A stretch of DNA of 64,000 nt. Origin: Raillietiella orientalis (Eukaryota). Positions within the stretch are counted from its first letter, which is position 1; every line of letters begins with the position of its first letter. A program made the translations under genes and the position numbers. The stretch is taken from positions 1,240,001 through 1,304,000 of the forward strand of contig JAYWIR010000002.1 of NCBI GenBank assembly GCA_036172245.1. The letters are read 5' to 3'. A model generated the notes under the pieces. The model saw only the letters and a list, made by a program, of their open reading frames with translations, was not told the origin of the DNA and ran no database searches. This document shows positions 1 through 22,815 of this stretch, piece by piece.

Positions 1-600
1 GCAGCATGCCTTTTCCTATGCTCAAATACTGAAGTGCTCAGCCCTTTTACTAGGGATTTCTAGTGGCACAGTAGTTTTCCGGTGTTCATGAACGTAAGGA
101 TCCTTGATCGTATCCATGCAGGCACTCCTTTGGTGGCGGAACTGAAACCCGATTCTTGGCATCTCCTCTCATGGTGGTCCTGTTCTCTCTTCGCTGATGA
201 TTGACGACTTCTTGGCGCGAGCAATTGGAGTGTTAGCACTCTTCCATCAACCTGGAGCATCAGGAGCAGTCGTATTTTGGAAAATATTGCTGGAATGGGT
301 GGATTCGAGGCTATCAGCCCCTAATTTTTCTGGACAACCTAGATCTGGGTTAGTGGTTCATCATGCTTGTACGTTATCATATTTGAGCTCCAAATGCAAT
401 GGCTGAAGATGCGGTTCAGTGAAGGCCTTTCACCTTTCACCTTCTGCACCCATGATCGGCTTCATCACCAATTCTCTCATAGGTTTCCCCATTCTGCAAA
501 AGTTAAATTACAGGTCTTTCTCATTATCATGCAAACTGAAGCCGTGCTTTGTAACATTCGAGCTGATTATTTTAAATGACAGCAGCATGGATGACTACAG
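1..600 (-). mobile_element. Decayed DIRS-like reverse transcriptase fragment
   Basis: Minus-strand ERPVI*LLQN (~490-520, cf. RPVIDL..LN) and PAIFSKIRLLLML (~255-295, cf. PRIFTK/GIRLLIYLDD). Many stops; by-eye match only. Confidence 0.3.
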
Positions 601-1199
601 TGCTGCTCTGTAGATTGAACCATCTGATGTGGTCAGTATGAAAAATTAACAGTGTTGCAGATCACACCTACTGATCCGCACATGTTTTGTGAGAAAATTC
701 CGTGTCCCCCTCTTCTTATTTTCCTTTTCTTGCTTCTCCCTCGTATTTATTTGAACATTCCGTAACAAGCGAGCATTTTCCAGATCATTTGAATGAAATC
801 TTTGTTCAAGGGTATCTCTTGGATGCATCGTCTGCAGCTCTGTGAGAATTGTTGTATGAGTTTCCAGACTTCTGATTGACCGACGATTCGTTCAAAATCG
901 TCTGAAAACATGACAGAATGGCTTCCTACGTGGAACGTTAAGAATGACTTGAAGTCATTCTTAACTTAAAGTCACTCTGTCAGCTGGTCATCAGGCTGAA
1001 GCACTTCTGACAGCAGCTGCACACGCGCCTTGGCTTTTCGCCTTTAGCTGCGTGAAACACCGTATGATTGTCAGAGTGAAAGCGTACAAGGAAGAATTCC
1101 ATGATTTGACAGATTGAAACTCGGGTGAAGCTCCTTGCATATTCCATGTGTAACTTCAAGATACCACGAAAATGATTTTATTTTACACTATCGGTACTT

Positions 1200-2800
1200 T
1201 CTTCAGGCGTCAGAAGTGTTTACGAGGAATATGGGGCTTGCACATCCATAACGGAAAGACTACTCAAGTTTCCATTGAAATAATGGTCTACATGAAAGTT
1301 TTGCAGTCGTCTTCCTCGTCGTCTTTGCTCTCTAAACCCATCCCTTTCCGAATTTCTGTGCCTCCACTAACTGTTCATCTTGTGGTAGAGGTGATACCAC
1401 AAGATGAAGCAATGCAGCATGTTTGCTAGTTGGTGGTGCCATCCTTATTCTTCAGCTGTGCCCACAATCACCTTTGCTATGATCGAAAACCATTCTTATA
1501 TCTGAAACCATCGTGATGTTCCTCTTGGCGGCGGCATTCGTATACGTGAATTCTCTCGCTTCCAGCTCATTACCTTGTAAATTGCCAATACATCGACCAC
1601 CCAGACGACATTTTAAGTGCTGTTCCTCTCATGATCTCTACTTTCCTCTTTGCTGTATTGAAAATTCACTGTGACAAACATCATTGCGTCCTCCAGTCCT
1701 CTGCTTTTTCTGACATGCAGTGAGAATGCATTCATTCTGTTAATCATTTCAACTTCCATCACGCCAAAGAGAGCTCTCATCTCTGTATCGTCCCTTGCGG
1801 GAGAGTTGTTAGCACTGTTGTGTTTAATGAAGGAAGCAATCTCATCCTGCTTCTACTCGAAATCGAATACGTGGAATATTTTTCCTAATTTCTGTTCGTG
1901 CCAGCGTCAGAGGTATATCAGCATTGTGTCGCAGTCCATACTCAAGAACTCAGTGCAAGTGTCTAAAGATAAAGACCGAGTGAGCTGTAGGAAGTCAGAT
2001 TCATAGCTGCGATCTCTTGCGAAGCCCATGATTTCAGCGATGGTGAACGAATCGACTGAGATGGCCCTGTTGCAGCGTCCTGGTCCGCCTGCTGCCTCGC
2101 ATATAAAACTTCCCTGCATAAAACACCTGGACCCGATTCTCATTTTTCCTGACCATCTAGTTATGCATGCCTCCCAAGTCTTCCTGGTTCTCTTGCATCT
2201 TGCTCCACGACTGAATCTCAAGAGTATCAAATAGACTTTGAAAGAAAAAGGCACTCTGAATAGAACGACGACGAAGCGAGAACACGCGTTTTCTAGACAG
2301 GAGATTGCTCCTAAGAATAAATAGGAGCGAAGTTATCCTCAGCAGATGAAAGATGAGAGTGCTTGAAGACCAGGGATACGCCATCATTGCCGCAAATGTA
2401 TCTTCTTCCAGAAAGAGGCGTTTGAGGCGTCTGTTTTCTTTTTCTTTTTTTGGTAGACAAGAAAAAAAATTGAATGGAATGTAGAATGAAAAACGTGGAA
2501 TTCTGACTTTCTCGGGATGAAAACTCTTCATTCACACTTGCTATGGGACTCTAATTTGTCTACTTTGTTTTCGAAGGAATTTCCCCGTGAATGACGAAGA
2601 AAAAGAGCAGGCAGTAGCAGTGAAGCAGGGTTTCGAGGCTTCAGGTATCCCTGTTCCTGGTCTCCAAGCACTGGAACCCAAATCACGACGGCCACACTTG
2701 CACAAGGAGCTCGTTGGCCTTCAGCTCTCAGAAAACGACAGTAAAAATCCAGTTGTGAGAGAACCGGTGGCACATGGACTGGAATGAGAATCTGTGCTTT
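1200..2800 (-). mobile_element. Decayed DIRS-like methyltransferase-like + tyrosine recombinase fragment
   Basis: ENRRLKRLF..AAMMAYPW (MT-like, ORF 2157-2531), GARCKRTRKTWEACITRW..RAISVDSFTIAEIMGF (YR N-terminal region, ORF 1907-2254), TAKRKVEI (~1630-1660, cf. SAKRVSEI). Confidence 0.45.
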
Positions 2801-3149
2801 CCTACAGGATCGTAGGCCAGCTTGGGAAAAAAAGGGGCTTGATTCTTAGAATGGTTTGTGCTATACTTTTTTTTTCAAAAAAAAAAACTGTATCGATGCC
2901 GCAATCCGGGTGTCCCAATTGTTTCTAGGAAATTCAGGAGTACGGTCATACCCGCAGGCTCATTGGAATGAAACGTCTCACTCTTAAAACGGTAAGAATC
3001 ATAAGAGTGGAGCACCTAAATCAATATTTGAGTTGGTGGTATCAGTAATGAGTGCCTTGCATGGTGCTTTGAATGCAAGTTTCATAATATGTGTGGGAAG
3101 CTGACTTTCAGAAACATGTCGCGAAGATGTGAAACGGAAAATGATGAGC

Positions 3150-3450
3150 TACGAGGGATCTGTAGCCATGCATCCTGTTAACTTAGATTGCCAGGAGCTT
3201 CTTTCTTTGCTTATCCACTCGTTTTTCTGCTTTTTCTCAGCAGTGGCGTGCCTTTTGATGACGCAGCTGCAAGGCTCTTTAGACAAAATGGTAAGGCGTG
3301 CGTCTGTACAGTTCTCCCTGAAGCACAGGCAATCAGTAGAGCAACGAAAGCTCGCAAGCACCGGTTGTGAAACTGCAGAGAAGCCACGGAATCCCTACGT
3401 TTTTCAGGAGAAATGCTGTTTGATATTTGAGAGAACTGACTACCCAAACA
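3150..3450 (-). mobile_element. Decayed DIRS-like tyrosine recombinase fragment (catalytic-Arg box)
   Basis: ORF 3211-3447 contains FVALLIACASGRTVQTHAL, close to the DIRS YR consensus VFLLALASxxRVxELHAL. Confidence 0.5.
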
Positions 3451-3749
3451 CGCTTATCTTACATGTTCTCCACACTCATCTGACATGGTGTTCATCACGT
3501 TCTCTCACAATGTAAAAAGCACTACTTCATGAGTGATTCGTTTTTCAAATTTGGTCTTGTTTGCTCATCAGAAACTGCAAAAGTACGTCTTCTTTACTTT
3601 TCTTTTTTTTCTTTCTGCTTTTTTCGTTTTTTTGATAGCAATTTTAAATACACCTTGTCATTTAGAATCATCATTTTCATAATCCTATGAAATGTATCGT
3701 AAAATATTTGCGCATCTTAATAATTCTTTCCCGATGACTTAAATTTTCG

Positions 3750-6640
3750 AGGTTCATGAATTATTTATGACCATTTGTTCCTTACTGCTGCACTTGTTAC
3801 TTCCCGGGAAGCGTTCCTCAGCCTCTTGCAAGAGGAATAGATTGCATTCTAATTTCTTACTTCCACCATTTGATGAGCCGAGAATATGCAGCCCATCTGA
3901 ACAGAGATGCATGGATCTTAGATGCAGTTTCACTCTTGCATTCATCGTTTCTTTCCCATTTCCAATCTGCATAGCCGATATTCCTAAACATTCAGGCAGG
4001 TGCGGCCCCCTCTATTTGGAAACTGAGAGTCGAATTCCTCTCCTTCGACCCATGGAAGTCCTTTCTCTAGAGATGAAACTCTGATTATCTCACCGTCTTC
4101 TTTCGTATCGTTTTCACAGAAATCGCGCACACCCAATGAACCTCGAGCTTCCTTCGTGCTAAGGCAAGTGTAACAGACGTAGGCAAAAGAAAGACAAGAC
4201 GCAAAGAAGTCCCGAAGAGGTAAGGCATACTGCTTCTAACAAAAGGCGGAAGTGACTTTGCATGATTTTTTCTATGTATTCAATCTCGGATCTCTTCAGG
4301 GTAAGCAAAATGAAAGCACAGAAGGGGTACCAAAGCATATCCTCCTGAAAACAAAGGTGAACAAGCTCACTCTGATAGAGGAGGCCCACTTCCCTTGTCA
4401 GATTCCGGCATCAGGAGAAAGAAAAAAAGCATCAGTACATTGGGAATTCGAAAGAAATTCTCGTAGCTGCTCAGAAGAAAGGAGGGGTGAAGAGAATAGG
4501 CAGTTGTACGACGCTGCACGGCAACGTTGGCCTTCTTCTCCTCGTACATGCCTTCCTGTGCTAGCACCCCATGGCCGCTGCTTGCTGCCTGCAAGTTCAT
4601 CAACTCTTCCTGGGAAGGAGCGACTGGTCTGGAGCCCGCGTCGGAGGCTTTGTGGTTAAGGCTTCCGCGCGTGGCACCATGCGTCGCGGGTTCGAATACT
4701 TCGGCAGATAACTTGACGCCACTGCGTTGTTTGGGTTCCGAGTTTCTCCTGCAACGGCGCGGGTTGGCCGAGACATTCAGGCGTGTGGCCCCGGCGGTGG
4801 ATAAAGCCGGCGGCCTCCCGATGAAGGTCGGAACAATGGGAGTCGACTTTCGGGTCCTTCCAGGAATCGAGTAGTGGGGAGTTCCTCCTCCGGTCGTGCA
4901 ACGGAGAGCGGACTCCCCCTACCGGGGGACCCCTCCGGCTCCAAGATGGAGCAGGTGCCCGTGAGGGCACCTCTCCAGTTGTTCAAAGGAGCGGACCCCC
5001 CCTGTTGCGGGGGGGACCCTCTGAGTCGTCGCCTCTTCACAGAGTGCAAGGAAGCAAGCGAGAGCGATTCCCTGCGGGAAGCTGCAGCGCCCCTTCTGAG
5101 TTTCGGAAGCGTCCCTTCGGGGTTCTCTTCAGAGGAGTGAACAGGAGCGGTTCCCTTGCGGGTTCCCTCCGGAGAAGAAATTCCTACAAGCGGATCCTTT
5201 CCGGGTTTTCTTCGGAGAAGTTGAAATGGAGAGGACCACCCCCATTAGGGGGGTGCCCCTCCGGAGAGAATGAGGAAGGAGATTCCCTTCGGGGTTCCCC
5301 TTCGGAGACAACCAGGGTGGGAGGTGCGATCCCCCCGTCCGGGGGGATCCCTCCCCAAGCGTCAGAAGAACGGACTCCGAGTCCTTCCTGGATTCATAGG
5401 GCGGACCCCCATCCCGGGGTGCCCCCTATCCTGAAGAATTACACGCCCCCCTGCGAGTTACCGTGGGCGGAAGCCTTAACCACAGGGACTCCGACGCGAC
5501 GTCGTGAACTCTGTCGAACTGGTTTGAGGTTTTTCTCCCATAACTAGCTCTTTCCCTAGCAAAAGTACGAGAAATGCAACTATCTGGTATTTTATTCATT
5601 CCACTTCAAGGTGCTCTTCGGCGAAACGTGCTCTTTATCTTAACAATCACGGTGCTGCTCGTGCGTGCAGAGAGTTCGCAGTCAGCAAAATGGGTGCTGC
5701 TTTTTGGAAGATCACTCATCGGTCACAAAGGAGTGCTCCTTTCCATGCATTCCACGAAGGGTTCGCCTTCCGCTCCGGTCTATTCCAGTCATATCCAGGT
5801 GTCCATTGCTTTTTGTTGGCAAAAATGGCAATTTGTTGGACAGCAGGAAGCCGTCTGGTTCCTTCTCCAGAGCATCCATTGCTTTCCCCAATGAGAAACC
5901 AAGTGGTTTTAGCATCGGTCTTTTTCTTGGCATAAGCTGAGTGTGATTCGCACAGACAGCAGCTGTGCTCTTCGAGATGCATCTCGCTGGAATGTTCGCT
6001 GGGAGGACCAAAACGGTTGCAGGAGATCCAGTTTGCGAAAATGGACCTGTAGTCTGATTCCCTTGACGCTCAGGAACTTGACTTCTACCACCTAACGTGG
6101 AGCATATAGGATATTTCGGCGTGATCTAGGATTCAGTGGCACTCCAAAGGGAAACCCCCTTTTAAGGTCAAAATATCCCCTTGGGAACTTTCCGGAGAAC
6201 GAGGCAAGCGAGATAAAGCAAACAGAAATAGGAGCCACAAGTTCGTTTTTCCTCTCGACTCATTCCTGGAAGAAGGAGCTTGCAGTCTGCTCACCGAACC
6301 AGTGCTGATCTCCGTCTTTCCGAGACAACCGAACCAACCTCCTGCAATGCATAAAGAACCTTTGTGACTTCTGAGAATCTTGAGGAGGCACTGAGGGCGA
6401 TCTCCTGGCAGGCTTATTGTAATTCTCCTCTCCACGCTCATCCAACAGTAACAATAACGAACTTTTTCATTCTTTCACACTCACAGAGGATGCCAAAGTC
6501 CTCGGGTGAGGGCGACTACGGTGGATATGAGTACCAGAAAAAGGGCAAGACTTCGGCTACCACAATAGGCGCGGAATGGCAGAGAGACTAGCAGAGAGTC
6601 AGGAGTCGGCCCATAGGCCTTCAGCTCAAACTAGAAGTAC
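3750..6640 (-). mobile_element. Decayed DIRS-like retrotransposon (RT 5700-6450; YR 3750-4500) interrupted by a GC-rich hairpin island
   Basis: RT: RRLVRLSRKDG, GFPFGVPLNPR, FLSVKGIRLQVHF, LKPLGFSLGK in correct order. YR: KSLPPFVRSS...LRLVFLLPTSVTLALARRKLEVH (cf. PPFEP...KTVFLLALASARRVSELH). Confidence 0.55.
4637..5534 (+). other. GC-rich structured element: tRNA-like (A/B box) head, hairpin array, complementary termini; candidate Pol III ncRNA or SINE-like element
   Basis: 32-nt inverted repeat 4637-4668 / 5467-5498 (29/32 identical), B-box-like GGTTCGAATAC 4689-4699, multiple stems with TTCG/GTGA loops, T5 at 5530-5534. Confidence 0.45.
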
Positions 6641-7049
6641 CAATCATGAAGGACCAAGGCAAAAAAAGATTTTGGAAGCAAATGACCAACAGGACTAATA
6701 TTCACAAGTTTTAAATACTGCATCCTGGGATCTAAATAGATTCTAAGGAAAAGATAAGATGTGTGGACAAATTATATGGACGAACAGGCAGATGAAGCAA
6801 TGGTGGACATGGGGAGAAAAATCTTCATAAGAAATTAATCGTGATGCAAAGGAAGAAGCTATCGGATGGATAAGAATCACTTCTAAGAACGTGTTCGTAC
6901 CATCATCATTAGGGGCAGTGAGAAAGGAAACTTCAGGATTATAATTCCAGGTTTCGAGAATAATTACAAGGCTATCGCTAGCTTAAAAAGAGGCTACCCT
7001 CCTCACTATAGTTCCTCCACTAAACAGAGACAGAAGATCTGTCGCACTC

Positions 7050-10000
7050 ATAGACACAGGTTGGAAGAAGGGTGTTTGATGAAGGTTGAGGTAGTAGATG
7101 CAAGAACAGATGGCAAGCGATGGCATGTCTCATGGACGCTGCTCACGGTCGTCCAAGGACCGGAGACAAGAAACCAACAGTGCTGTAAGCATGCAGCTTC
7201 GACAGTGATGCGAGCTTTTCGAGGAACTCTAAGGAAGGCTTCAAGCCTTATCGTGAAGAAACAGACATCATATTCCTTGATGAGTGCGCATCTTCGGAAT
7301 CGCTGCTGCTACACATATTATATCATTATCGCCGAGGAGAATTCTTCGAATAGTAATGAGCTAACAACCTACTCTGGGGAGATCTTCACTCGATCTTCAA
7401 GCCGAAGGTGCACGCTAAACATCTACTTAATCCAATTCCGCACTTAAAGATCAACAAAGCTTACAGATTCCGAGCTCAAAGAAACTACGTACAGGAGAAA
7501 AATTAAGTCCATTGCATTCATGCTCTCTTCCATGCAGAACCATGACTTCGTCTTATTCGTATCCTTCTGCCATACACAGATGCAAAGAAGTGGTTGAATC
7601 CGCAAAGCATCATTTCCTGAATTTCGAATTTTTCGTTTTTTCATGGTGATGTCTAAGACTTCTGAAGGCAGGAGATTGAGGAAAGTGAAGCGAATTGGAA
7701 TAGCTGCCTCTAGCGAAGCAGAAAAATCAGGAGCAAACAACAGTGTCTTTCAGGAGAGCACAGCGAACACAGACACGGTCTTTGCTCCTTCTTTTCCAAT
7801 TCCAATATGAATATGCTCGCTTAGCAACTGTCTGTATCAACAGCCAAGTGTACTTATTTATATTATGAAGTCTTCTACAAAAACCACAATCTGATGACCA
7901 GAATTCCGAGTAGTGCATCTCTACGTACCTTGCAACATCACGAAACAAGGGCCAGTGAATGGCTGTGCAAAAAAACTGGGAAATTCAGTTTTGTCTCAGG
8001 ACGAATTTGAGGAATAGAAAGACCGATATTGACGTATCCAATACAATGAGACGAAATGCTCCTATGGTCCCTAGTTACCTTCCTCTTAGGAAACGATTTG
8101 CATTGTTCTTGTTAGCATAAAGAGTGCTTCATATCCGTGAGGGGGAAAACGCTTATCTTCAGTCCCCATTCTTACAACAGAATCTACATTACAAAAATGC
8201 CATTCCTCATGTGGCATCTGGAATTCTCATGACAGAATTCATGAATTCCTAAAATTCCAATTCAATTATATGCCCTGGACAATCTATATGATCTGATATG
8301 AGCCCCATTGAAATCTAAATGGAATTCTATGCAAATACAAACTTTGCGTTCTCTTAGGAATTGGCAGATGTCGTCAGATTTTCAGTGAAATATTTGCTCC
8401 AACCACCATCTGTGGGAGGATGCATACTACTCGGATGGGCATAAAGACCCTGTGAAGCCCTACTACATTCGGTGCAACAGCTCTGTAAGTAAGCAAGTGC
8501 TACTCCCTTGCAAGATCAGTCGAGAAGTCGCCTGTCCTGCTGATAAAAGGTAAGACTCCTCCTTCCCAAATGGGTGCCTCACGTCTCTCTCCGAATGAGA
8601 GGCAGTGCTTGCAACCATTCTTGAGCGCCCTAATTTTCGTGATCTCCAACTGCTCATTTCTCTCAATAAAATCTGTTTCATGGACAAATGCCTTTCCAGC
8701 GCAACCATTTATCCTAGTACTGATCGTTCATTTAGCCAACGTTGGCTGCGTTTCGGATGAAGCCATTCCAGACTTCTCGGTGCAGAAAGCGAAGATGAAC
8801 GTTGAGAGATAGAAAGCACTCTCTTCTCTGGGAGCAAAGACAGTGGTAACACTGTCTTTTTACACCAATAGGGAAGGCACGCAGCGAGATTCCCGGAAGC
8901 AAACACACTACCCGCAGAATGAGAATTGTTCCAGCCTATTCTCATGCACTCGGTCCGAGTTCAGTCTGCAGAATCGCATCTATCGATCGAACAGAGAATG
9001 CAAAGAGAAGTCCCATCTCTAAATCCTTCCAGCCACGTGAACCTCTTTCAACTTCAACTTTGCATACTTCGAAATCCCGTATCTTTGGCGCCATTACGGT
9101 AACTTTAGTTGTTTTTTTCCTTCTTGTTTTGATCCTGCATCATCGCTCCAATGCAGATTCCACTCACGTGCAAGGAGTGCTGATGAGTCGATCGCTACTT
9201 TCCCGAGAGTAACAAATCACAAAAACCTACAACGCAGCTGCCTTGTAGGTTTCCCGCGGATTCCTACCGCGAAGTGACTGGAATCAAACACTGCAAAATT
9301 TTCATACCAATAGCTGATGACAAGAGACAATCACAGCACAGAAGCAATGGAATCGACCTTCCCTCTTCACAAGAAAATTTGTAACAAGTTCGCAGCTACA
9401 GTTTCTCCAAGAACGGACAACTGGGTGCAATCGATCAGAGACTTTATTCCGCTGAACTCGCATCATGTCATGACCTTCTGTTCTGATCATTCTGGATGAC
9501 CTCGTGAGAAGAGACCAAGCATCCTCGTTCCTCATTGTTCCATCCTCCACATGCTCTGAAGTGCATGAGGTACGTGTGGAGGATGGAGCAACCAGCAGAG
9601 CGAAGCCACATGCCCAAAGATAACATTGTCTACTTCGTGCGTCTGCTGTCTTTTCCAGCAGAGCCGCTTGTGCTTCCTCAAACTTTTGTCCTTATTCTGT
9701 GCCGCTTAAAGGGAAATCACGCGATTGATTTGGATTGGCAGGGACCTCGTAACTCCAGGAACTACAATGTTTCGAAAAGGCTGGAAATTCCAAGAACCTA
9801 CGCGAAATGGCTCTGCAAGTCTTTGCTGCCATTCAATGTCCAATGCAGCCTAGAAGTTTACTGGACGCATATGCCCAAACATCTTCTTAACGACCGAGCA
9901 CAGACCTACGTAGTCGAGTAGCCAGAAGAAAACTACCAACTACCACCAACTCTTCCGACTAGTACAGCTCCGAAACTCAAGAGGTTTAACAGAGGAAGCT

Positions 10001-11700
10001 TCAGGTTCTGAACGAAAGGCTGCGAGTTCGAACCATCGAGCGGAACTCTTCGGACAGAACCCCTTTCGCCCTTTCAGGGCAGAATGGCGCAAAGCCGCAC
10101 GAATCGAATCGGAAGGAGCTGCGGGAAAAATCCCTCCCTCTCATGTCTTCAAGAAATGCATTTCTTCCTGTAAAAACTCAGAATCTTCAAAGATTCGGTA
10201 TTTTGCAAGAAGTGATCGAGAAATGAAAACAGACTACGCCCTTGAAAGATCATGGATGCCTGAGGAGCTTTACAATGGTCCGCACGAGTTGTAATCACAC
10301 CAGCAGGAATCACTCGAATCCGATCCAAGGCAAGCGGCTAAAAGAGCTTGCGGAACGGCGACATTCATCATCAACGAGAGCATCTCAGGAGAACGAGTTT
10401 TCCGTATGTTCGCAGGGGAAGAAGGTTTCCCACCGTTCCTGACGAACCACTGGAAGCGTAGAGCACGTGGGGGAGACCTGAGCGTAGATACCACCTTTTT
10501 TTGCCCGTGTCAGAACGGAAGGCTCTCTACTGCACATTTTCTGGGATGCGTAATTTGGGAATCCCATTAAAGATTGCCCACTCGGCACTCACATCTACGG
10601 CAAGTTTGTTCAAAATTCCTCGTCCTCGGTTTTTCGAGCTCTTGGTGTGACTTCTCTGACGGGAAAAGATGACCTTGGTATTCCACTTTAGTCTTGAGCA
10701 CGCTGCACCAGCGATGGCAACTTTGGATTTCTGCACCTGATCACAGAATATGTCTATGAGCCAACCCGACAACGGCAACTCGTTGCCGAGGTGCTCAAGA
10801 CCGACAACATTCAGCAGAACACTTTCGAAATCCCCCACATGCTTCTGCTGCCTCTTTTCTTTTGAAGGCAGAAGCTGGTAAGCAGAGGAGACGAAATAGA
10901 CGAAGAGGATGAGCCATTGACAACATCCTCCGGATCTGAGAAAGCTCCGCTTGCATGTTGGTGAAGGGGTCATTCATGAGGACAGCAACCAATCCGCACG
11001 TTCGAGCTTGCAGGCAGAATTTGCAACTGACGTTCAAAATGGTGAATCCGGCACTGTCTCTTCGGTGGCGGCCTGTTAGCTCCACACGTCCTGACGAGGA
11101 GGATCGAGCATGCTAGAGTAGCCAAGCCCGAAGGATGCGGCTCCTTTCGCGGCTTCATGGGGGTACGCTGGGCACCGACATGCTCTCAAAGCCAGCGCGC
11201 CGGCGAAAAAGCAGCGACCTGAGCGGCCGACGTTGCTCGAAGTGAGTTGGGAGGGGAGGGAAAAGTGACAAAGGAAAAGGGATAGCGATCAGACCTCGGG
11301 ATCCCTTCTTGAAATCCTCGCCGCTGGGACAGCCCTCGCGCTCAAGAGGACGTGACCCACATCACGGCTCATGTTTGGTATGCGGGAAGGATGAGAAGAT
11401 CCTCCAGGAAAAACGCACGCTCGACGGAGATTCCAAATCCCACAGCGTCGCCAAGTCCAACCCTGCAGCAATGAAGTCGTCGCTCTGACCTTCCCGCGGA
11501 AGCTCCTCCCTCAGGAAACCGCTCTGAGTAAAGTTTGATCTGCTGAGGGCGCAAGCAGCAAAACGCTTGCCGTTCGCGTCCTTGGAGACCGCAGTTGCAG
11601 ACACCAAGGAGCTGGAGCGCTTGGTTGGGGTGCAGCAGACCAAGTTCGAGTCCATGCCTTCGCGTTAGCTCTTGAAGCGCACCCTATTCATAATGGTGAA
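7050..11700 (-). mobile_element. Decayed, near full-length DIRS-like retrotransposon (gag-like, RT, RNase H, MT-like, YR)
   Basis: Ordered motifs: GC-rich Cys-containing gag-like region 10450-11650; RT LSFGAVLVGRV..LRRCLGICV (~9860-9990); RNase H end LKLKEVHVAGRI*RWDF (~9010-9060); MT-like VFASGNLAACLPYWC (~8860-8905); YR LLIQTVAKRAYS (~7810-7850); HxxR motif DAHSSR (AHSSR at 7275-7289). Confidence 0.55.
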
Positions 11701-11953
11701 AACAGGCATGGGAAATCAACTGACGAAAAGTGATTCATCTCAGTGTAGCGTGTCCGTCGCAGTGCTCACTCGCTTTTCTTTTTCTCCCTTTGGGTGATCT
11801 GTAGATGTGCGCTGAGGCAGGGCTATGCTTTCCGTGGGTCGGGAAACAGCCGCGAAAGCTTCCGCGCTTTCCAGCATAAGAACGAACCCACTGGAAACTT
11901 ACATGCTTTCTTTCCAGTGCTCCTAAATATTTCCTCAGAGACAAAGAACAATT

Positions 11954-13352
11954 ATGGTGAGCATCCGAGCGGTTGTTCTCTGCCTTTGTCTTTGTGTGGC
12001 AGTTCAAGGACGTCGGAAGCTGAACTCTCTTGAGAACGAACTACTAACATACTTGCAAAATGAAAAAAACGAAAACTATGGATACAGCGTATATTACTAT
12101 TTCCAGGATGCTTCTATAACTCGTTTGATGGGTATGCAAGCGCGTGCTATGAAACCTGCGTTCATTTCTCATTTCGTTTCTCATTTGTGCGCATTAAGAT
12201 GTCTTGCTGAGATGACTTTCACGAACTTTTCTTTTCAAAGTCTCCATCTCGCCTTCGAAACACCTGACCCCATCCCACTGAAACGACGTGCGACTTGGAA
12301 GCAACGCGTTGAGCTCTTTCCTCATCTTCTCTTCGGGAAAGAATGGCACAGTTTGCATCCTTGTCCCAAGATGGAACCGGAACAAATGCTCGGTTCCCAA
12401 GATGGAACCGAGCATTCGTTCCATAGTGTCTTCGAATCCCACTACTTCCCATAGCGGACTCTCAAGGCAAGCCGGCAATTCTCCAACCAGCAGACATCTG
12501 CCAGCCTCCGAGCACACATGCAGCAGGAGAGCAGTTTTGAGAGCCCAGCCATCTTTTCGACAACTCTTTCAGCCCTTTGCCTACTTCCCAGTCCTGGACT
12601 GCTAGATCACTTTAGTAGTCACGTCACCAGATTCCAATGCTCTAAGTCTCTTCTTCCGTCCACCTTACAGAGGTCCCCCTACTGTTTTTCCTACGTGTTG
12701 TTGAGTGAAGGGCATCATCTTTCCATCCTCCCCCATATTTGCAGCTCTTTTGCACTGACTTTACCAGCTTGAGACCTGATCTTGCAAGCATTGAAACGAG
12801 ACCTGACGCAGGTGTGCCTTTGAGCCGTAGTTACATCAATGATGTCTTCCTACAGCTAGACCACACGCTTCACATCTTTGTTTTCAGAAAGAATCCCTTT
12901 TCAATCTTTGACATTTTTTCATTAAGTTTCTCTTGGTAGATCCTGAAAAGCACTACACCCTCTTCCTGCCATCGAAAGAGGCAATCGATGATGTTTTCTC
13001 CGTTGTTAATGGCATTGATATTCTCATAAAGCATCCCGAACTTCGCGACGAGGTAGTTCTCAATTGGATCTCCCCAACTGAATCTCTGACGAACACTAAA
13101 GGAACTCGGATGCTGACAGCCCTAGGAGGAAAACAAATTAACCTCAGGAATTCAGGTAGGAAAGATAAGAAATACATGTTGATTGCGGGTCCTGTTGTAG
13201 GCAAAGGATTAGCAGTGAACGGTGTCCGAATTCTTTACAAGATAAAAAAACAGCATTTCGATGCATATATCACAGAGAAAGTCTTGTTTCTCACAAAAGA
13301 TAGAGTAAAGGAAGCAGCCATGGATGTCAACGTACCTTTGTCTACCGCTTGA
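11954..13352 (+). CDS. Secreted single fasciclin (FAS1) domain protein, ~196 aa, 2 exons
   Basis: Exons 11954-12131 and 12940-13352 join in frame across a GT..AG intron (G|AT=Asp). N-terminal signal peptide MVSIRAVVLCLCLCVAVQG, FAS1 H1-like motif YTLFLPSKEAI, H2-like YITEKVLF, and AATAAA at 13415-13420. Confidence 0.75.
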
Positions 13353-13497
13353 CTCTCCCTGACTCTCTTAATGTCACAAGTGTTAAGAGCGAAAATGAGA
13401 AACATATTCATAGAAATAAAGATTTAAAGACTTTGTAGAGGCTCATTTTTAATGAAGACAACACGGTGATCAGCGATCAACTCTTGCTCTTGCCAGA

Positions 13498-14855
13498 TGT
13501 TGACCTCGATCGATTACCACACATGATATTTACCGAAATAATTCGGAGACTCTTCCTTGAAAGACATCTCTCGTTATGAAGAAAACCCCGTTTGGAAGAA
13601 CGTGACAAGAAGTGATGTAGTGATCCGCAATTGGATACGTCAAGTTTAATGCATTGGAACGGAGACTGGGGGATGTGGTTCTTTGATTATCGTACGGATC
13701 TCTAATCCTCGTAGTAGCAGAGTGGAAATATCTGAAGTATCCTGTTCGCCTCCTTCCTGTCAGCGGTAGCATTTTCATCTCCTGCCGCGCACTTTCGGAA
13801 GGCTAAGGGCAACTGAGCGGCCTCCCGGCACACTCCAATTACACATTCGGGTTTCAGGCGTCCCGAACTGACACCGGGAGCTGTCCGCCCAGACAACGTG
13901 CACCCCATTCCCAGGAACATTACCCCCCTGTCCTACGGCACGGAGTCGTGATGGCAGCTTAGCGCAACTGATGGGTCCCTTACACGAGACGGTCAGCCCA
14001 CTCTGAGTAGCCCCACGAAAAACGAAATCACAGGCGCAGAAGAGAACACCCCCAGCGAGCGGCTCGTGCCATAAACTGGGTCCTCTCGCTCGTTAGAAAG
14101 ACTCGGTTCCGGGGACAGGCCAAATGCCCGCCTTCACCAGATCGGCGAGAATATGCTTTTTCCAGAACAGAGAACGCTCGTACAAACTAAGTCTCGGCTT
14201 CCTGATCACCCTCGTGAACGCGTTTGGAACTCCGTAGAAGGTCAGGACACTGTCCAGTCTGCCAAAGGTAAGTCAAGACATGCCAGAACGCATCATCGGC
14301 TCAAAAAGATGTAGGACGTGTTGCAGAACCCGAGGTGGGAAACAACCTGAAAATGTGGTTTGGATCGCAGTGTGCGAATATTCAATTTGCCAAAGTGGGA
14401 TAGAAGGAAGGGGAGTAGAATAGACCGCAAGGGAGGAAGAGTACCCGCAAATTCTGGCACTCGTTGTAGATTTCGAAAACGTGAACGGGGACCTCTAGAC
14501 ACTTGCGGGTTGCCTCAGGCTATCTCATAGCCTTCTGGGATAGCTGTACTCTCTCTGGGAGAGAACAGCTTCATTCTCTTTAGAGTCTGCCGTACTCAAG
14601 GTGCGAAGGATGTCGCGTGCCATGGATGCAGGTAGAACTTGACCATCTCTCCCCAGTTGACACGGATCTCCGTTCTGTCTCCCATTGATTGATCAGCCTC
14701 CACGCCACCCTCGGAGGCCCGCAACAACGTTTCCCTTGTGCTCCTGCCTCACTTAATCCCGGCGGTCTAACTCGAGAAACCACCCGAACCGGTTGCCCAG
14801 GTAGTAGACACGAAGATGGACACAAACGTGCCGAGGGCTGGTCCTTATGTCAACA
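13498..14855. mobile_element. GC-rich insertion, probable transposon/LTR remnant
   Basis: GC/CpG-rich block between the convergent FAS1 and NBAS 3' ends, bounded by TGTTGAC...GTCAACA. Minus-strand AGGGGGGTAA-TGT at 13917-13929 resembles a polypurine tract/LTR junction. No TSD or recognisable ORF. Confidence 0.25.
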
Positions 14856-15249
14856 TTGCTGAGATAATTCCAAAATATCAACTGTTTCTCAGCAACTTAT
14901 AAATGATACCAAGCGCACAGAAATATAAAAACCATAAAAACGATGGTACCAATAACATTCAAAACTAAGATTCATGCAGTCGAATTTCCATTTCTAGAAG
15001 GAAAAACTTAAAGTAATTATATTTTTACAATCACGTAGGATGATGATAAGCTTTCAAATTCAAAAAGACCCAATGTTTCATGAATACGATTTGAATATTC
15101 ATAAAATGAAATGGCTGCTGACATGTTTCATAAACTAATGTTACATACCAATTAGTGCCACCATAAGGCAAGCAACAAATTTTTTTTTTAATAACTAAAA
15201 AACATAACAAGACTTGGTAATCTTGCTGTAGTTAATAATCAAATCTTAT

Positions 15250-18200
15250 TTATTCTTTATAACTTAACAAGTAGTTAAGAGCAACTAAAGAATTTTGTGC
15301 ATCACACAAATTATCGGGGACTTTATGATACCTGAGCAAAATGCACCCAGCATCCCAATCTTTGTGCACTTTTAGTAAGTCATAACAAACACTTTCAACT
15401 CTTGATTGATCTCCTTTGACTAAGTGTTCACAGATTGCAGCAAATAACCATGATTTAGTCACTTTTTCAACCAGGTGTTTGTCTATTAATAAATTAAGGA
15501 GCTGATCATCAAATGCAATATTTTCAGCATTCTTCTCCAACTGGCTTAAACACATGTTATCAGTTTCAGCATCTCCGAACAATAATCCTAATTTAAGCCA
15601 AGATTGAAGAGATAGTTTATCCATACCAAAATCAAGAATTTCTTTCAATTCCTAAAACATTTTTACATACAAAATTAGAGAGCCTAAAATAAAGGTTTTT
15701 GAGATTGCCAACATTTTTTTTGTCAAATGATCACACAGTAGTTTGAGATCACCGAAATGCTCAATGGTTATAACATGAAAACATTAATTAATACTAATTA
15801 TATCCGAAAGTGTTAAAATTAATACACTTTAAAAAACATTCACACTTCCATTTCCACCAATAATTTTTTTTGTTTTTTGTTTCTTGTTTTTTGAAATCCA
15901 ACTTTAAAAACATTAATTTTACCCTTATAATTGGATATGAAGGCATGGCAACTGTACTGATTAATGAGTAGCCATGAGGTAAAAAAAAACTATGAGACAA
16001 TAACCATTTTTAGTTCTTTTGTCAGGTTTATTGTTAAACATCTGACAAAAGAAGTGTTCTCAGTCATAAAACTCTACAATAACAACACAGCATAGGATCA
16101 TTCATTCACTATGGTAAAAGCGAAACAGCATAAATAAACTTGTTTAATGTTTTATGAATGTTTACATTAAAATTACATATTTCTAAAAAATAACAAAATC
16201 AAGAATAAAGGGAACATATGGTACCGCAATTAGGAATAAAATGTACTTACTTCAGGATGCAAGTCACTTGGTTTAAAATACTCAAACAGATCCAATGTTA
16301 ACAAGTTATTTTGAATGCAGTATATGAAAAACTTTTTCCATAAACTTCGATAAACACAGTTATTGACAGGACATTTGATCTACCTTAAAATATACATACC
16401 TTGCAGTGGTACTGAACCATTCTTGTAAAACAATTCCAAAACGGATCACATGATTTTTTGTTGAAACTTTTGGCAGCAAAGTGTGGAAAACATTTTTACA
16501 CCATGTGGCAATATCCAAATCATTATTTCTGCTGATGGGACTCAAAATCCCAACCAAACAATTAGCTATATAATACTCATAGTCAGATTCAGGTACAAAT
16601 GATTTTAAGCATCGAATAATCTCTGTTTTTAGAGTAATCGACGAACAAGAGTTTTCACAAAAATGAATGACTTTCTGCACAACATCTGATATCAAATGTG
16701 GAAATTCTGAATGAAAACAAGACATGATGAGCTTGATAGATGGTGCACAGTCTATGTGCTCCTTTTGCAACTCACATTCTAGGCAATGGACAAGAATGTC
16801 TTCTAATTTGAATTGGTTAAGAACAGGTAGAGTCAACAAGGGTTTGATATACATTATGGGAACTTTTGATAGCATGTTGGTAATGGTTTCCACTTCACAA
16901 TCCCAGGAAACCTGTAACTGTCCCAGGCAATCTTCAACATCTTTGCCTCCTTCATGCACCAAATCCACAATATGCTTTTCTTGAATAGCTTCCATGAGTT
17001 CTAACCACTTAGAAAGTTTTTTGTTGAGATTTTGCCAAGACGGATCATTTTCTTTTCGAGTGCTTATGTGAGCATGAATTTTTTTTCCCATTCGACGCCG
17101 TTCTTCAATAGTGCAAAAATTTAAGAAGCGATCATCAAGGAAGGTAGACTTCATGAAACCAACAAGTTCACCAGGAGGAAACTGCAAACACTGGTTATAG
17201 CAGGTGTCAAAATGACTGCTCCAATCCAAACAATCTGGTTTGTCCCAAAAGCATTTAACCATCCAAACTCTTTGTACAACATAAGATCCAGGTATTAAGC
17301 TTTCCACAATATGTGATAAGACATTCACATTGTCCTCTGTCAAATGAGAAATTAAAACAGATGGAAGATTAGATGCTTCTTGCAATTTATGATACTTCAA
17401 TCCTGGAGCTATGTCCTTGAGAATCCGCAAATTCTTAATGTGCAGCTGAACATCATTGTGTTCTGAAATCCCATCATTACACTGTTGTAATACTTCATAG
17501 AAAGCAAGTAAGCAACTATGATTAGCATCATCCAACAGTGGAAGCACATGAGACAAAAGCCACTGTTTCAATTGTAAAGGATTCTGAAACAATTCATGCA
17601 GAACTTTCTCCTTCCAAGATGTTGTTTCCCAAAGACCACTTAGAAGCAAGTGGGAGAGATGTGCTAACTGCATATCTTCTCTTGATATATTATGACGTTT
17701 TGCAAGCAAAAGGGCATTTTCTAAAATGCTTTCTTTTTCACATCTAAATGCATACAAGAAATAATAATAATGATAAAAAGCTTTTGTATGTAACTTACAA
17801 AGCCATACTTTTAATTGTCTCTTGCTGGAAAGTTATGTCTTCTAAAAATTGTCCCAGGTCCACTGTGTCACCTAGACTTTTCAATGATGCATAATAGCAT
17901 ACATCTTCCAAATTCTGTAAGATTTGCAAGAATGCCAGAATCCACTCATCAGAAACGTCCGTGGTCTCAACAAAATTCCGAACAATCAAGAAGGCCTAGA
18001 ACGCATATAGCTAATTCTTTTAGGTGACAACTTACCAAGTGAGGAGGAATTGTGCAAACTGCCTCAGAGCCATTTCTGGGAACCAAATGATATTGTGTAA
18101 GAATCCGAAGAACTACAGAAAATAGTTGCATTTCTAAACCTATTTTGAATCTGAACAGGATTCTTGAAGGATGCACATAAGTCAAAAGCAATCCCAGAGC

Positions 18201-21200
18201 CCAAATTGAATCTTCAAAAAATACAGCTGTGATTAAACAGTCTAAAACTTTATCCGAGCTTGTTATCCAAGCATCAATTTTGGCCTCTGACTTACGATTT
18301 GAAAGTGAAGAAAGACTGATATCTGTTTGAGAATCTAACAATTCTCTTAAAAGTTCGTTTGCCCATTGAACAGAAGTTGCAGCACATTCTTTATAACTTG
18401 AAATCCAATGAATTGGATATTTATTAAACACGTAATAAAAATCTAACGACCCAAATTCTTTCCCTGGTTCATCAGAAATTGGAGTCGATTCCAGCAATGG
18501 TCTACAAAATGCTACACTTGGATGATGAACAGTAAAAATATTACAATTAAACACAAGCACAATAAAAAGAATACCTGACAACTTTGTCACATAATCTCTC
18601 CAAATCCACTTTGCTGCCTTCTTCAACTATTTGCAAATCCAAAAGTAATTTTTGTTGTAGTAAAAACTTCCTAAAATAAGAAATATCGAAATTATATAAA
18701 CCATGCTCTGCCAAACCTCATGTTAAGAATTTCCAGAATTTTGTTGCTTATGCAATAAGTTACAATAAAACTAAGCATTTCCAGTGCCCAACCAATGTTA
18801 TCTCCTAGAGTATGCTGTACTAGTTCCCAGCAAACTTTCCATGCTTCACCAAATTCCCACTGAACCAACTTCTCACACAATTGCTTGCAATATTTTACAT
18901 TCTGAGCTTGGAGTGCAGCTTCAGCACATAATACATAGACATATTTGCTTAGATACTCATGTTGGTCAGGAATAGCAAAGTAGCCAACTAAAGAGACCAA
19001 TAATTTGGTCTGATGATAATTTTGTGGAGAAACTGATAAGCATTTTTTAATCAAAGACAAAACATCCACACAATGGCGAACTACTAAGCAAACGATTTAT
19101 TAGCATCCACCGAGATTTCATGGTTTCACCTTCAAATGGAAGAATGTCCATACCAAGCTTCCTCAGAACTCCTAGGCCATCAAGAAGTTGTTGCTCCTTT
19201 TGCAATCTGGTTGAAAGTGAAGGTAATATATCGAGGCAGTTTCTGAAAATCTACGATGGAATCTGATATTGCTGTTTTACAAATACCTAGCCAGCTGTAA
19301 ATTGGAATCCATCAAGCTTCCAGATGAGTCTATGTAAGCATGAACAGCTTGCTGCACAAGACGAGTAGCTACATCTTGACCATCCAGAGAGCGAATGTTT
19401 TGCAAAAATTCAACAGAATTAAGAATAACCTCTGAGTGACCAGATGTAAGCATTGCATTTGCCACAATCTCATAGCAGTTTGACACTGTTACATTACAAG
19501 GCACCTTTTGACAAACCATAAGCATATCATCAATCAGATTTCTCCAAGTTGCTGTAGGAGCTTTAGGTTTGATGCATTCAACCAATTGCTTCAGAAGAGT
19601 GACTGAGTTTTCATAATTATCACGGCACAAATGCACTTCAAGTGCAGATGCAGATAGACCCCATGAATTGAAGCGATTTACAACAACCAATTCTTTATGC
19701 AAGTCATCTACTTTATCATGCAACTCATCAGATCCAACCCCATAGTCCCTCTGTGGCAAGCACTCCAAAATCTGATAAGCTAAAGGTAACTGATCCATAT
19801 AAGAATTCGCATAAACACACTCTAGGGCTAAACTAATAACTAAACTAGGATCTTTTATCACAGGATCAGCTGAATCAACCAAAGAGTTTTGAAAAATCTG
19901 CAAGCTGAATTAGGAAACATTACTTATTATCCAACATTCCTTACTTTTAGAGGAATACTAAGATCATTTGCTGCAACTTTTCTCAGATAAAAGAAGAATA
20001 GTTCAGTCCCTCTTTCATGACATGATAAAATAGGCAGTAAGCGATAATGATAGGCAGATACTACTTGCTCAGCTGTACAATCTTTCATTAGCAAACAAAC
20101 TTGCTCTTCTGAAGTGAGGTCTTTAAGTGAACTGAGCTGCAAGTTCTCAATTCCAACTTCATACACCAATGCTCTCAAAGTCATTAGTTTCACTTCTAAA
20201 TTTTTTAATGCTGGGATATTGTGATCACAACCTATTTGAATGAGAGCCAAGGCATGATCTACTTGCCCTGACCTCTCCTCAATTTGTTCAGCTCTTTGCA
20301 AATACCATTCAGATATTAGAGTTGAAGATAAACAACGTGCCTCAAAAACACGTAACCAAGGTTCTTCTCTGTAAAGCCATTCTATATCTGGATCCTCATC
20401 ATATTCTTCAGGATTAGCTGAAGGCAATTTCTGCACAAACTGGACTTTCCCATTCAGTCCACATACAGGCAGCAGTGGCTCATACTCATGAGGAGAGAAT
20501 GTCTCAGGGAAACTAGACAGCACAGCAAGCCAGTATGGTAGCATATGACTGCCATTAATGGTAAACAAACAACCCACAGCTGCAGTATTGGCTTTACGAG
20601 CAAAATGAATAGCAGAATAAATTAACGATTGATCCCGAAACCATCGAAACAAATGAGGATCAAAAGTATTTTCTCCATGGAAAGAATAATTCATGATTTT
20701 CTGAAATTCATATTTATTTGCCTAATATTTTGCTTGATATATTCATGGATTTACCTTATATATGGCCATTTTATTGAGATATTTTCTGATTTTCTTAGCC
20801 ATGATACTTTCTCCATCTTTTTTACTAATGTACTTCAAACCATAATGTAACAACTCTTCCATAGCTTCTGAAGTTTCCGGAATGCATTCCAATACCTCTT
20901 TAAGGATCCACTTTTTATCATGAATTTTTGATAAATATTCATGAATACAGAATACTGATGCTTTGCTTCGTTTCCATTGTCGCTGATAAACCAAATCTGT
21001 GTCCAGTGCATATGTATGAGCAATACTAAGGGCCTGCTCATATTCTTCAGTTTCAATCTTCTGCATATATAAATCCTTAGGTAAAACTGATCGGAATGTA
21101 AAAAGCCTAAAAGTTCGAAACATTTTTTTCTTTCTTATGGTGGAATACTTTTCCAAAACTGCAAAGAACCATGGAATGAGTAAAGGAATATATTTTATTA

Positions 21201-22815
21201 ATTTAGAATTTGGAGCACTCTGCACATCAATGCTTTCTTTTCTATGCACAAAACTTTGCTGGATATCACTCAACTTTTGAGAAGTCTCCTTGCAAATAAT
21301 TTTGCACTCCAAAATAAGGCAGGCCTCATTTCCTAATAATTGCATTTCTGGAATAGGAGGACTTGCAAAAGTTTCAGGAATAACATTTAAAAGACTGTCT
21401 AGAGTTGATGAAGATATAATGGTTAAAATCCCATCAATATTTATAACAACTAAGGCCTAAATAAACTGCCTATTAATACATAGTCATTGTAAAGATTTTA
21501 CTTACTCTCTCACCCCACCAACAAAGGCTCACAGGATACTGTTCTTTTCTTACTGATTTTTGCAAATCACATTGAATTTGTAATGACTTATATTGCAGCT
21601 GCTGCAAAGATGGCAAAGACCAAATAGATATTGCACCAGATAAGTGAATACAGGCCATCTGGAGACCACTTGGGGAAATAGAAAATGAACAGATATGGCT
21701 GCATCTAAATGAGCTATTAAAACCCATGTATAATAAGAATCTTTGAAACAAGGAGCAGTTCCTCTGCATTAAAGAAGAAGGTATATGATGCACTGTTATA
21801 ATCTGAACATAATAAGGAGATTCATCACAAATACGCCAAATGGTAATGCCATACTTCTGTATAGAATTTGTAACATTTGAGGGGTCTGAAGCAATATATA
21901 ATAAGTTTTGATGAGGATGCTTATTTACAGCATGGATTCTAGAGCAATCTAAAGGGTATGAATGATGCAAATGCCACTCTCCGTTCAAATTTAGTCTATA
22001 TGAGGAAATTATGGCAGAGTATGTCACAGCAAGCAGTTCAGTCTTATATTCTTTGATATGGGACTGATTTTGAAGAAATAACAATGATACTAAATAAGCA
22101 TCGGATGTATTCCCTTGAGTTCTTGTAGGCAATGATAACAGGGAGGAAGCTGTCACCTCAAAAACATTTATTCTGCCATCACTATATCCAATGGCCAAGA
22201 TTGAACCATCCTGATTCCAGCAAAGTTGTCTGAAGTGAGGAAATGGATCTGTAGGTATTGAAACCTTGAATAACAAATTCTTAAAATTATTCTTTGAAGA
22301 TCTAATCTCTAAAGTACGCTCCTGTAACAACGCTATAAACTTTCCAGAGCCTCCGAGAGCTAGCTGCCAAGGATTTCTAACATAAAAAGGGGTTATCCTG
22401 GACCGAAATGTCATTTAATCTATACCTGTGATTCTTTAAAAAAGTTTTTGGTCTAAAATACCAATCCTTCAGCCAGGTGCGTGGGGCACTATATGCATCT
22501 TTCTGCAACAGAAAAAACACCGCCTCAATAACGCTTCCGAATCAAAAGTCTGTAACTGTTCTTCATGAAATTACCCCTCATTTCTCGTGCTACTTATACA
22601 TTAAACCACAAACTATGTTTCAATTAATAAGTTTTAAAACACCGAACAATGTATGCACCAAAAATGGGGTGGCATTCCTTGCAATGTCATGAAGAAATAA
22701 TTCAAAACCAAATACTCACTTTTTCGGGTATATTCTCCCAATCGATACAAGTAACCACTTCATATAAGATGCTCTGTTTGGCTTCACAGTTACACTCTTC
22801 ATGAAAGCCTTCCAT
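15250..22815 (-). CDS. NBAS: Neuroblastoma-amplified sequence (NBAS/Sec39-like NRZ tethering subunit), ~2062 aa, 14 exons
   Basis: Exons 22815-22720, 22502-22426, 22376-21506, 21456-20755, 20700-19945, 19897-19287, 19242-19130, 19080-18717, 18670-18575, 18501-18036, 17995-17799, 17743-16400, 16344-16251, 15651-15250 all have GT-AG ends and total 6189 nt in frame. NBAS-like motifs: ILYE near the N-terminus, KIETEEYEQALSIAHTYALDTDLVYQRQW, WLAVLSSFPET, WYLQRAEQIEERSGQVDHAL, ILECLPQR. Confidence 0.95.

Follow-up and report, generated by a model that had tools for sequence, protein, structure and literature searches.

A GC-rich inverted-repeat element carrying an array of palindromic units in Raillietiella orientalis, most likely a small non-autonomous transposon

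INTRODUCTION

Miniature inverted-repeat transposable elements (MITEs) and other non-autonomous transposons bounded by terminal inverted repeats (TIRs) are short, non-coding and multi-copy, and MITE-like elements that contain tandem repeats have been described in bivalves. We describe here an element resembling them, 862 bp in length (positions 4637–5498), in a stretch of 64,000 nucleotides from Raillietiella orientalis (contig JAYWIR010000002.1, positions 1,240,001 to 1,304,000 of the forward strand); this whole 64-kb stretch is referred to below as the window, and all coordinates are counted from its first letter. Like the MITEs and the tandem-repeat elements of bivalves, the element is short, non-coding and multi-copy, has TIRs and a composition unlike that of its flanks, and carries an array that varies. 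Unlike them, it shows no clear target-site duplication and has no recognised autonomous partner or superfamily, its units are GC-rich palindromes, and it lies at the long end of their size range.

Several other described systems share part of this plan. The Foldback elements of Drosophila combine strong self-complementarity with internal short repeats and non-coding copies, as this element does, whereas its arms are just 32 nt long and, in place of two long inverted halves, its interior has repeats that are local palindromes. The repetitive extragenic palindromic (REP) sequences and bacterial interspersed mosaic elements (BIMEs), and the palindromic elements of Rickettsia, are likewise GC-rich hairpin families in which the stem is kept as the sequence drifts; those families, however, are prokaryotic and far shorter, and the window is eukaryotic. 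With the tRNA-derived short interspersed elements (SINEs) the element shares box A- and box B-like motifs plausibly spaced at one end, multiple copies and a lack of coding, but it matches no tRNA model, has neither a 3′ tail nor a target duplication, bears an inverted copy of its head at the 3′ end, and is longer than most SINEs. The inverted terminal repeats of DIRS elements are much longer than the 32-nt arms found here. In the passages of PMC3266345 considered here, DIRS1-like retrotransposons are described as having inverted terminal repeats whose sequence recurs in internal complementary regions, and as inserting with no target-site duplication. The element resembles them in its inverted ends and in the missing duplication, and differs in having no internal complementary regions and in that neither it nor its surroundings code for GAG, reverse transcriptase, RNase H, methyltransferase or tyrosine recombinase.

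An earlier note on this DNA had read the element as the template of a structured + strand RNA. Much of its general description held, namely a discrete, non-coding, repeated, probably mobile and non-autonomous unit with real hairpins and with ends that pair; the claims specific to RNA did not find support. The element is most likely a small non-autonomous transposon, and not a proven structured RNA gene.

RESULTS AND DISCUSSION

Limits, composition and copies of the element

We tentatively read 4637–5498 as one copy of a DNA transposon that is MITE-like and non-autonomous, has inverted-repeat ends and contains a palindromic array able to expand; in our judgement this reading has not quite an even chance of being right. 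It is favored because the element ends in exact inverted repeats, codes for nothing, differs from its surroundings in composition, and exists in many copies whose internal array varies. The parts of the element are as follows.

4637..4668, no strand: left terminal inverted repeat, 32 nt, 29 of 32 complementary to 5467–5498; matches of contigs from run X1 (below) start at about 4634
4669..4899, no strand: left unique region of about 230 nt, with a B-box-like GGTTCGAATAC at 4689–4699, a segment (4699–4705) able to pair with 4640–4646, and local fold z of –0.7 to +0.7
4900..5435, no strand: degenerate array of GC-rich palindromic units, about 12 units of 24–39 nt (alignment A1)
5467..5498, no strand: right terminal inverted repeat, 32 nt; the depth of related contigs drops to 0 in the bin 5498–5608

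The two arms are inverse complements at 29 of their 32 nt (blastn of 1150 nt against the window, E = 2.8e–6). Reading them base by base resolves the three differences into one G·A mismatch (4647/5488) and two T·G pairs (4649/5486 and 4650/5485), the latter being wobbles on the + strand only, which is just what the earlier note had reported of these ends. When the left end is aligned with the reverse complement of the right end, identity is restricted to the outermost 32 nt, and the self-comparison pair I1 (66 nt, 71%) consists mostly of this core. Neither terminal 16-mer has a third copy in 4500–5650 at up to four mismatches, and self-blast of the window found no large repeats flanking the element. 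As RNA, the left arm alone could form an imperfect hairpin with itself, though its fold is not significant (z = –1.8).

The composition of the element is foreign to its surroundings and the boundary is sharp: the GC fraction is 0.61–0.62 in 4500–5500 against a window mean of 0.38, and the observed/expected ratio of CpG is 0.84 in this island against 0.66 for the whole window.

Two public sequence runs, here X1 and X2, contain related sequence (word shares 0.14 and 0.06), no RNA run being listed with any, and their contigs were aligned to 3500–6800 at 80% likeness or better; the comparisons below draw on 40 of 113 substitutions, 12 of 61 indels, 7 of 96 loose ends and 9 of 132 pieces. Related contigs cover just eight bins, 4610–5497; in the 22 bins that flank these within 3500–6800 the depth is 0 throughout. 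Run X1 yielded 118 related contigs, of which 2 have at least 99% likeness to the window, 15 have 95–99%, 42 have 90–95% and 59 fall below 90%. At least 10 of the joints among those listed omit 52–203 nt within the unit array, and single- and two-base gains and losses between copies are numerous among the listed indels. The loose ends of X1 contigs before 4634 agree with one another poorly (0.53), pointing to flanks that differ between copies. Run X2 yielded one 955-nt contig, which spans 4649–5451. Since contigs match the element and not its flanks, and some omit units, the element appears to be a discrete unit present in multiple copies; its limits fall at the inverted repeat, and the number of its internal units varies.

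An alternative is that this is repeated DNA with no mobility of its own: it may be part of some larger repeat, or else a hairpin array resembling a minisatellite or satellite, with a short inverted repeat on either side of it here by coincidence. Its interior does consist of degenerate tandem units, of which different copies have different numbers, and the copies are known from partial contigs. The alternative is nonetheless distinctly unlikely: the depth of related contigs ends at both arms, the loose ends at 4634 point to differing flanks, the window copy is solitary within 64 kb, and Tandem Repeats Finder reported no array scoring 30 or more.

In the MITE-like reading the inverted ends coincide with the edges of the repeated unit, related contigs matching only from about 4634 to 5497. 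A transposase encoded elsewhere would bind both inverted ends and cut and paste the unit, while the hairpin units would grow and shrink through slippage or unequal exchange, as in a minisatellite; being palindromic as DNA, the units could fold from either strand if transcribed. The window copy is judged old and probably dead from the differences between its arms at 3 of 32 positions.

Several observations weigh against the MITE-like reading. No exact target-site duplication of at least 3 bp lies within four bases of either boundary of this single, apparently old copy, except CGCG, which is palindromic and forms the outermost part of the inverted repeat itself. Pfam found no transposase in the window, the terminal bases match no superfamily signature that we know of, and 862 bp is at the upper edge of the usual MITE size. 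Self-blast revealed no second copy of the element in the 64 kb; the other copies are known as short contigs from other data sets, through their differences from the window and not end to end. The X2 contig parts from the window sequence at 5451, a loose end some 47 nt short of the right end, so that conservation of the right arm is not seen there. Finally, CTTCGG occurs five times on the + strand and never on the – strand, an asymmetry not expected if the units are purely DNA palindromes, although these counts are not independent events, the array units being paralogues.

A scan of metagenome and viral contigs for a 17-mer from the arm returned 64 + 2 loci, with no relatives of the element among them: blastn of 4501–5650 against these 66 loci gave, in its best 40 matches, alignments of about 19–28 nt plus one of 43 nt at 81%, which we regard as chance or tRNA matches. 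At two of the 66 loci, both on metagenome contigs, the same 17-mer lies in the D-arm/anticodon-stem region of a prokaryotic tRNA-Met gene (L001, 3650–3725; L044, 321–396). Plasmid and phage collections gave zero matches to the element. In the literature we found no described family like it, in a search too narrow to claim absence from print.

If the MITE-like reading is true, the element adds one more uncatalogued non-autonomous transposon family and would help to annotate repeats in the source genome and in related ones. Its cargo, an expandable array of GC-rich palindromes, would be mildly unusual; such arrays can form cruciforms or hairpin RNAs, yield small RNAs, and disturb replication or sequencing. 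Its importance would be much greater only if the + strand RNA reading, considered below, were true.

The palindromic unit array

Alignment of 12 units yields a shared plan: GGAG(N)GG, a C-run, a loop of 3–6 nt, a G-run and CCCTCCGGAG. Direct-repeat families D1–D6 within the array have spacings of 40, 43, 86, 92, 132, 167, 240 and 326. The element contains 10 perfect hairpins of at least 5 bp (stems of 5–9 bp, 63 stem bp altogether), where 500 dinucleotide shuffles contain 5.96 ± 2.07 hairpins and 32.5 ± 11.3 stem bp (largest 64); for hairpins of at least 6 bp the count is 6 against a shuffle mean of 1.84 (largest 6). These counts exceed chance, and each of the stem-loops that the earlier note had quoted individually was found in its place: GACT/TTCG/GGTC at 4845–4856, with three Watson–Crick pairs and one T·G; a perfect 8-bp stem with a GTGA loop at 4953–4972; CCC-TTCG-GGG at both 5113–5122 and 5285–5294; and a perfect 9-bp stem at 5328–5349.

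Folded one by one, six long units have z values from –1.95 to –5.65. Stems are kept between units although their sequences differ (GATC-C6/G6-GATC, CAC5/G5TG, AGGTGCCC/GGGCACCT), and outer stems differ as well (GGAG/CUCC in some, AUAGGG/CCCUAU in others); this retention of the stem despite unlike sequence suggests that palindromy itself is maintained or regenerated. In the X2 contig the C-run is one base shorter (5002) and the G-run loses a G (5009 G>T), and a change at 5016 (A>T) turns an A·A mismatch with 4995 into a pair.

Coding capacity

One open frame of some length crosses the array and the right arm.

4825..5547, + strand: 240-codon open frame, attributed to the GC content and not taken for a gene

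Could 4825–5547 be a coding exon for a proline/glycine-rich repeat protein? Its 240 codons are indeed uninterrupted, and translation turns the C-run/G-run units into PP..GG motifs. Yet a frame as long or longer arises in 6.9% of 1000 dinucleotide shuffles, so its length is not significant. Its 240-aa product has no Pfam family and no homologue by word search (5.8 billion clusters, proteins of 132–420 aa); phmmer against 1.84 billion representatives returned a single match (P0001), to an unrelated repeat protein, which we consider spurious. The units also fall in different frames, only two of the eight distinct spacings (240 and 132) being divisible by 3, and the copies vary by many one- and two-base gains and losses. 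We thus regard a coding exon as extremely improbable, and the element is non-coding.

Folding and strand symmetry

Folding was compared with shuffles on both strands, the check that had been proposed for a structured RNA, and the element folds far better than shuffled sequence on each. With 20 shuffles per strand, the whole element gave –446.3 kcal/mol on the + strand against –376.1 ± 8.4 (z = –8.4) and –421.5 kcal/mol on the – strand against –361.5 ± 7.5 (z = –8.0); the + strand interior without the terminal arms gave z = –5.35. In 200-nt windows of the + strand, 4800–5099 had z values of –4.6 and –3.1 and 5300–5499 a value of –2.7, and the remaining windows of the element, with all flanks, ranged from about –1.7 to +2.3. 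With only these two regions below z = –2.4, a large share of the whole-element signal can be attributed to about six strong hairpins together with the 32-bp stem that the ends form.

This signal of structure is genuine, and it is not specific to one strand. An equal folding excess on both strands is what DNA palindromes are expected to give. Changes between copies, by our own reading of the contig differences, favor either strand. On the + side, 4848 is T in the window and C in other copies, leaving the window copy with a G·U pair on the + strand, and C>T changes at 4939 and 4941 in other copies likewise yield G·U there. On the – side, T>C changes at 4886, 5382 and (in X1) 4914 yield A·C on the + strand in small stems. 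A tally over the local hairpins found zero G·T or A·C mismatches and is uninformative about strand. The proposal of a structure specific to + strand RNA thus lost its footing, given the similar z values and the changes that favor either strand.

Pol III signals and RNA-level explanations

The left end of the element had been described as a tRNA-like head for RNA polymerase III (Pol III). Scored against the consensus motifs, the A-box-like AGGCTTTGTGG at 4645–4655 matches at 9 of 11 positions and the B-box-like motif at 4689–4699 at 10 of 11; the two are 44 nt apart at the 5′ extreme of the unit. Neither motif is rarer or commoner than chance would have it: B-box-like motifs with up to one mismatch number 5 in the window against 5.3 expected, and A-box-like motifs with up to two mismatches number 173 against 180 expected; by our estimate, chance pairs of the two at suitable spacing arise about 0.2 times per window. 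Reading the sequence of the head, we find that a 7-bp acceptor-like pairing of 4640–4646 with 4699–4705 is possible, with no T stem. ARAGORN detected no tRNA in the window, the Rfam tRNA model had no match even at E ≤ 10 in 4620–4740 (121 nt), Rfam as a whole gave nothing at E ≤ 1 on either strand of 3500–6500, and at gathering scores it had 0 matches across the window. With these searches empty and the box motifs at chance frequency, the tRNA-like head is not supported. The arm carries a short tRNA-like word, insufficient for calling the head tRNA-derived.

The suggestion of a viroid- or retrozyme-like RNA fared no better, the Rfam search of 3500–6500 having found no ribozyme family at E ≤ 1 on either strand. 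We also weighed a hammerhead-like CTGAAGA...GAAAC near 5094–5133 on the – strand but dismissed it, since no Rfam match backs it and the register of its stem II is wrong.

A terminator had been placed just beyond the right arm.

5530..5534, + strand: T5 run in the right flank, 32 nt past the right arm, in a bin of zero related-contig depth

Both this run and an internal T4 (5206–5209) are present where they had been reported, but the T5 run lies outside the repeated unit and is not supported as its terminator, as related contigs end at or before 5497. Most related contigs have TTCC in place of the internal T4 (T>C at 5208 and 5209). The right end reads ...CTCCGACGCG, followed by ACGTCGTG, with no A-rich or simple-repeat 3′ tail there. 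A direct repeat matching at 9 of 12 positions (4623–4634 and 5517–5528) was rejected as a SINE-type duplication, about 0.3 such being expected by chance in our estimate and the contigs stopping by 5497.

These observations bear on the possibility, the main reading of the earlier note, that the element is a tRNA-derived, SINE-like retroposon transcribed by Pol III, or another non-autonomous retroelement, with a + strand RNA whose two ends would pair to close it and which would carry stable tetraloop hairpins. The spacing and quality of the box-like motifs and the acceptor-like pairing fit such an element, as does the existence of a multi-copy family. So does the leaning toward the + strand: two of the three arm differences are G·U on that strand only, the T at 4848 keeps its pair as G·U on it, CTTCGG is confined to it (5 versus 0), and TTCG occurs 8 times on the + strand versus once on the – strand. 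We still consider this origin unlikely. Neither ARAGORN nor Rfam sees a tRNA, each box-like motif occurs at chance frequency, and both the tail and the flanking duplication are missing. The internal T4 of this copy contains CC in others, the fold z is equal on both strands, and the stem changes at 4886, 5382 and 4914 produce A·C on the + strand. Two further points speak against it: SINEs, to our knowledge, do not repeat their head in inverted orientation at the 3′ end, and 860 nt would make a long Pol III transcript.

A more specific version would make the element an RNA-level replicator: a + strand transcript, started from a degenerate tRNA-like Pol III head, would be closed by a 32-nt panhandle, would bear UUCG and GNRA hairpins, and would be reverse-copied by a retroelement enzyme supplied in trans. 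We think this quite improbable; if true, it would represent a new class, a panhandle SINE or a viroid-like retroelement in an animal-like genome.

Tyrosine-recombinase context

The element had also been placed within the relic of a DIRS retrotransposon. Pfam searches for reverse transcriptase, RNase H, methyltransferase and tyrosine recombinase gave no match in six frames of 1–9000 at E ≤ 0.01 (stops read as X), the + frames of this region being empty even at E ≤ 10, and none in four of the six frames (three + and one –) of 9001–16500. Without a match to any of these domains, large flanking repeats or an internal copy of the termini, the DIRS setting could not be upheld.

A related possibility is that the element derives from a DIRS-like or Crypton-like tyrosine-recombinase element and is itself non-autonomous; it would have integrated by recombination and hence left no target-site duplication. 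The inverted ends and the absence of an evident duplication agree with this, DIRS1-like elements being alike in both respects (PMC3266345). The internal complementary regions required of a DIRS1-like element (PMC3266345), however, have no counterpart in 4500–5650 at up to four mismatches, and none of the four domains was detected in the frames scanned of 1–16500. The term 'non-autonomous' does not occur in the passages of PMC3266345 considered here. Such a derivative therefore seems improbable, and the MITE-like transposon remains the reading that we favor for 4637–5498.

Surroundings of the element

Upstream of an NBAS/Sec39-like gene, 1–16000 has no Pfam-detectable coding in the frames scanned, and its GC fraction of about 0.40–0.50 is above that of the genic part. 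The gene occupies 16360–22414 on the – strand with large exons and matches Pfam Nbas_N (E = 6.4e–36), Sec39 and KNTC1 ARM; compared with the opening 16 kb of the window, its exons are much richer in AT. Its introns are of the GT-AG type and about 37–54 nt long, and the window is eukaryotic. In the Atlas the neighbours of its N-terminal ORF were generic WD40 proteins only, and a search for longer proteins returned none.

Further along, a 254-codon frame on the – strand (50077–50841) has weak PH and C2 matches, both under the Pfam cut-offs, and may belong to a larger signalling gene. Self-blast picked out two isolated palindromes, at 937–965 (29 nt, 96.6%) and 12379–12422 (44 nt, 81.8%), both unrelated to the element. 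A second GC-rich island (63101–63900, GC up to 0.65) has no sequence in common with the element and may be either a first exon or a promoter resembling a CpG island.

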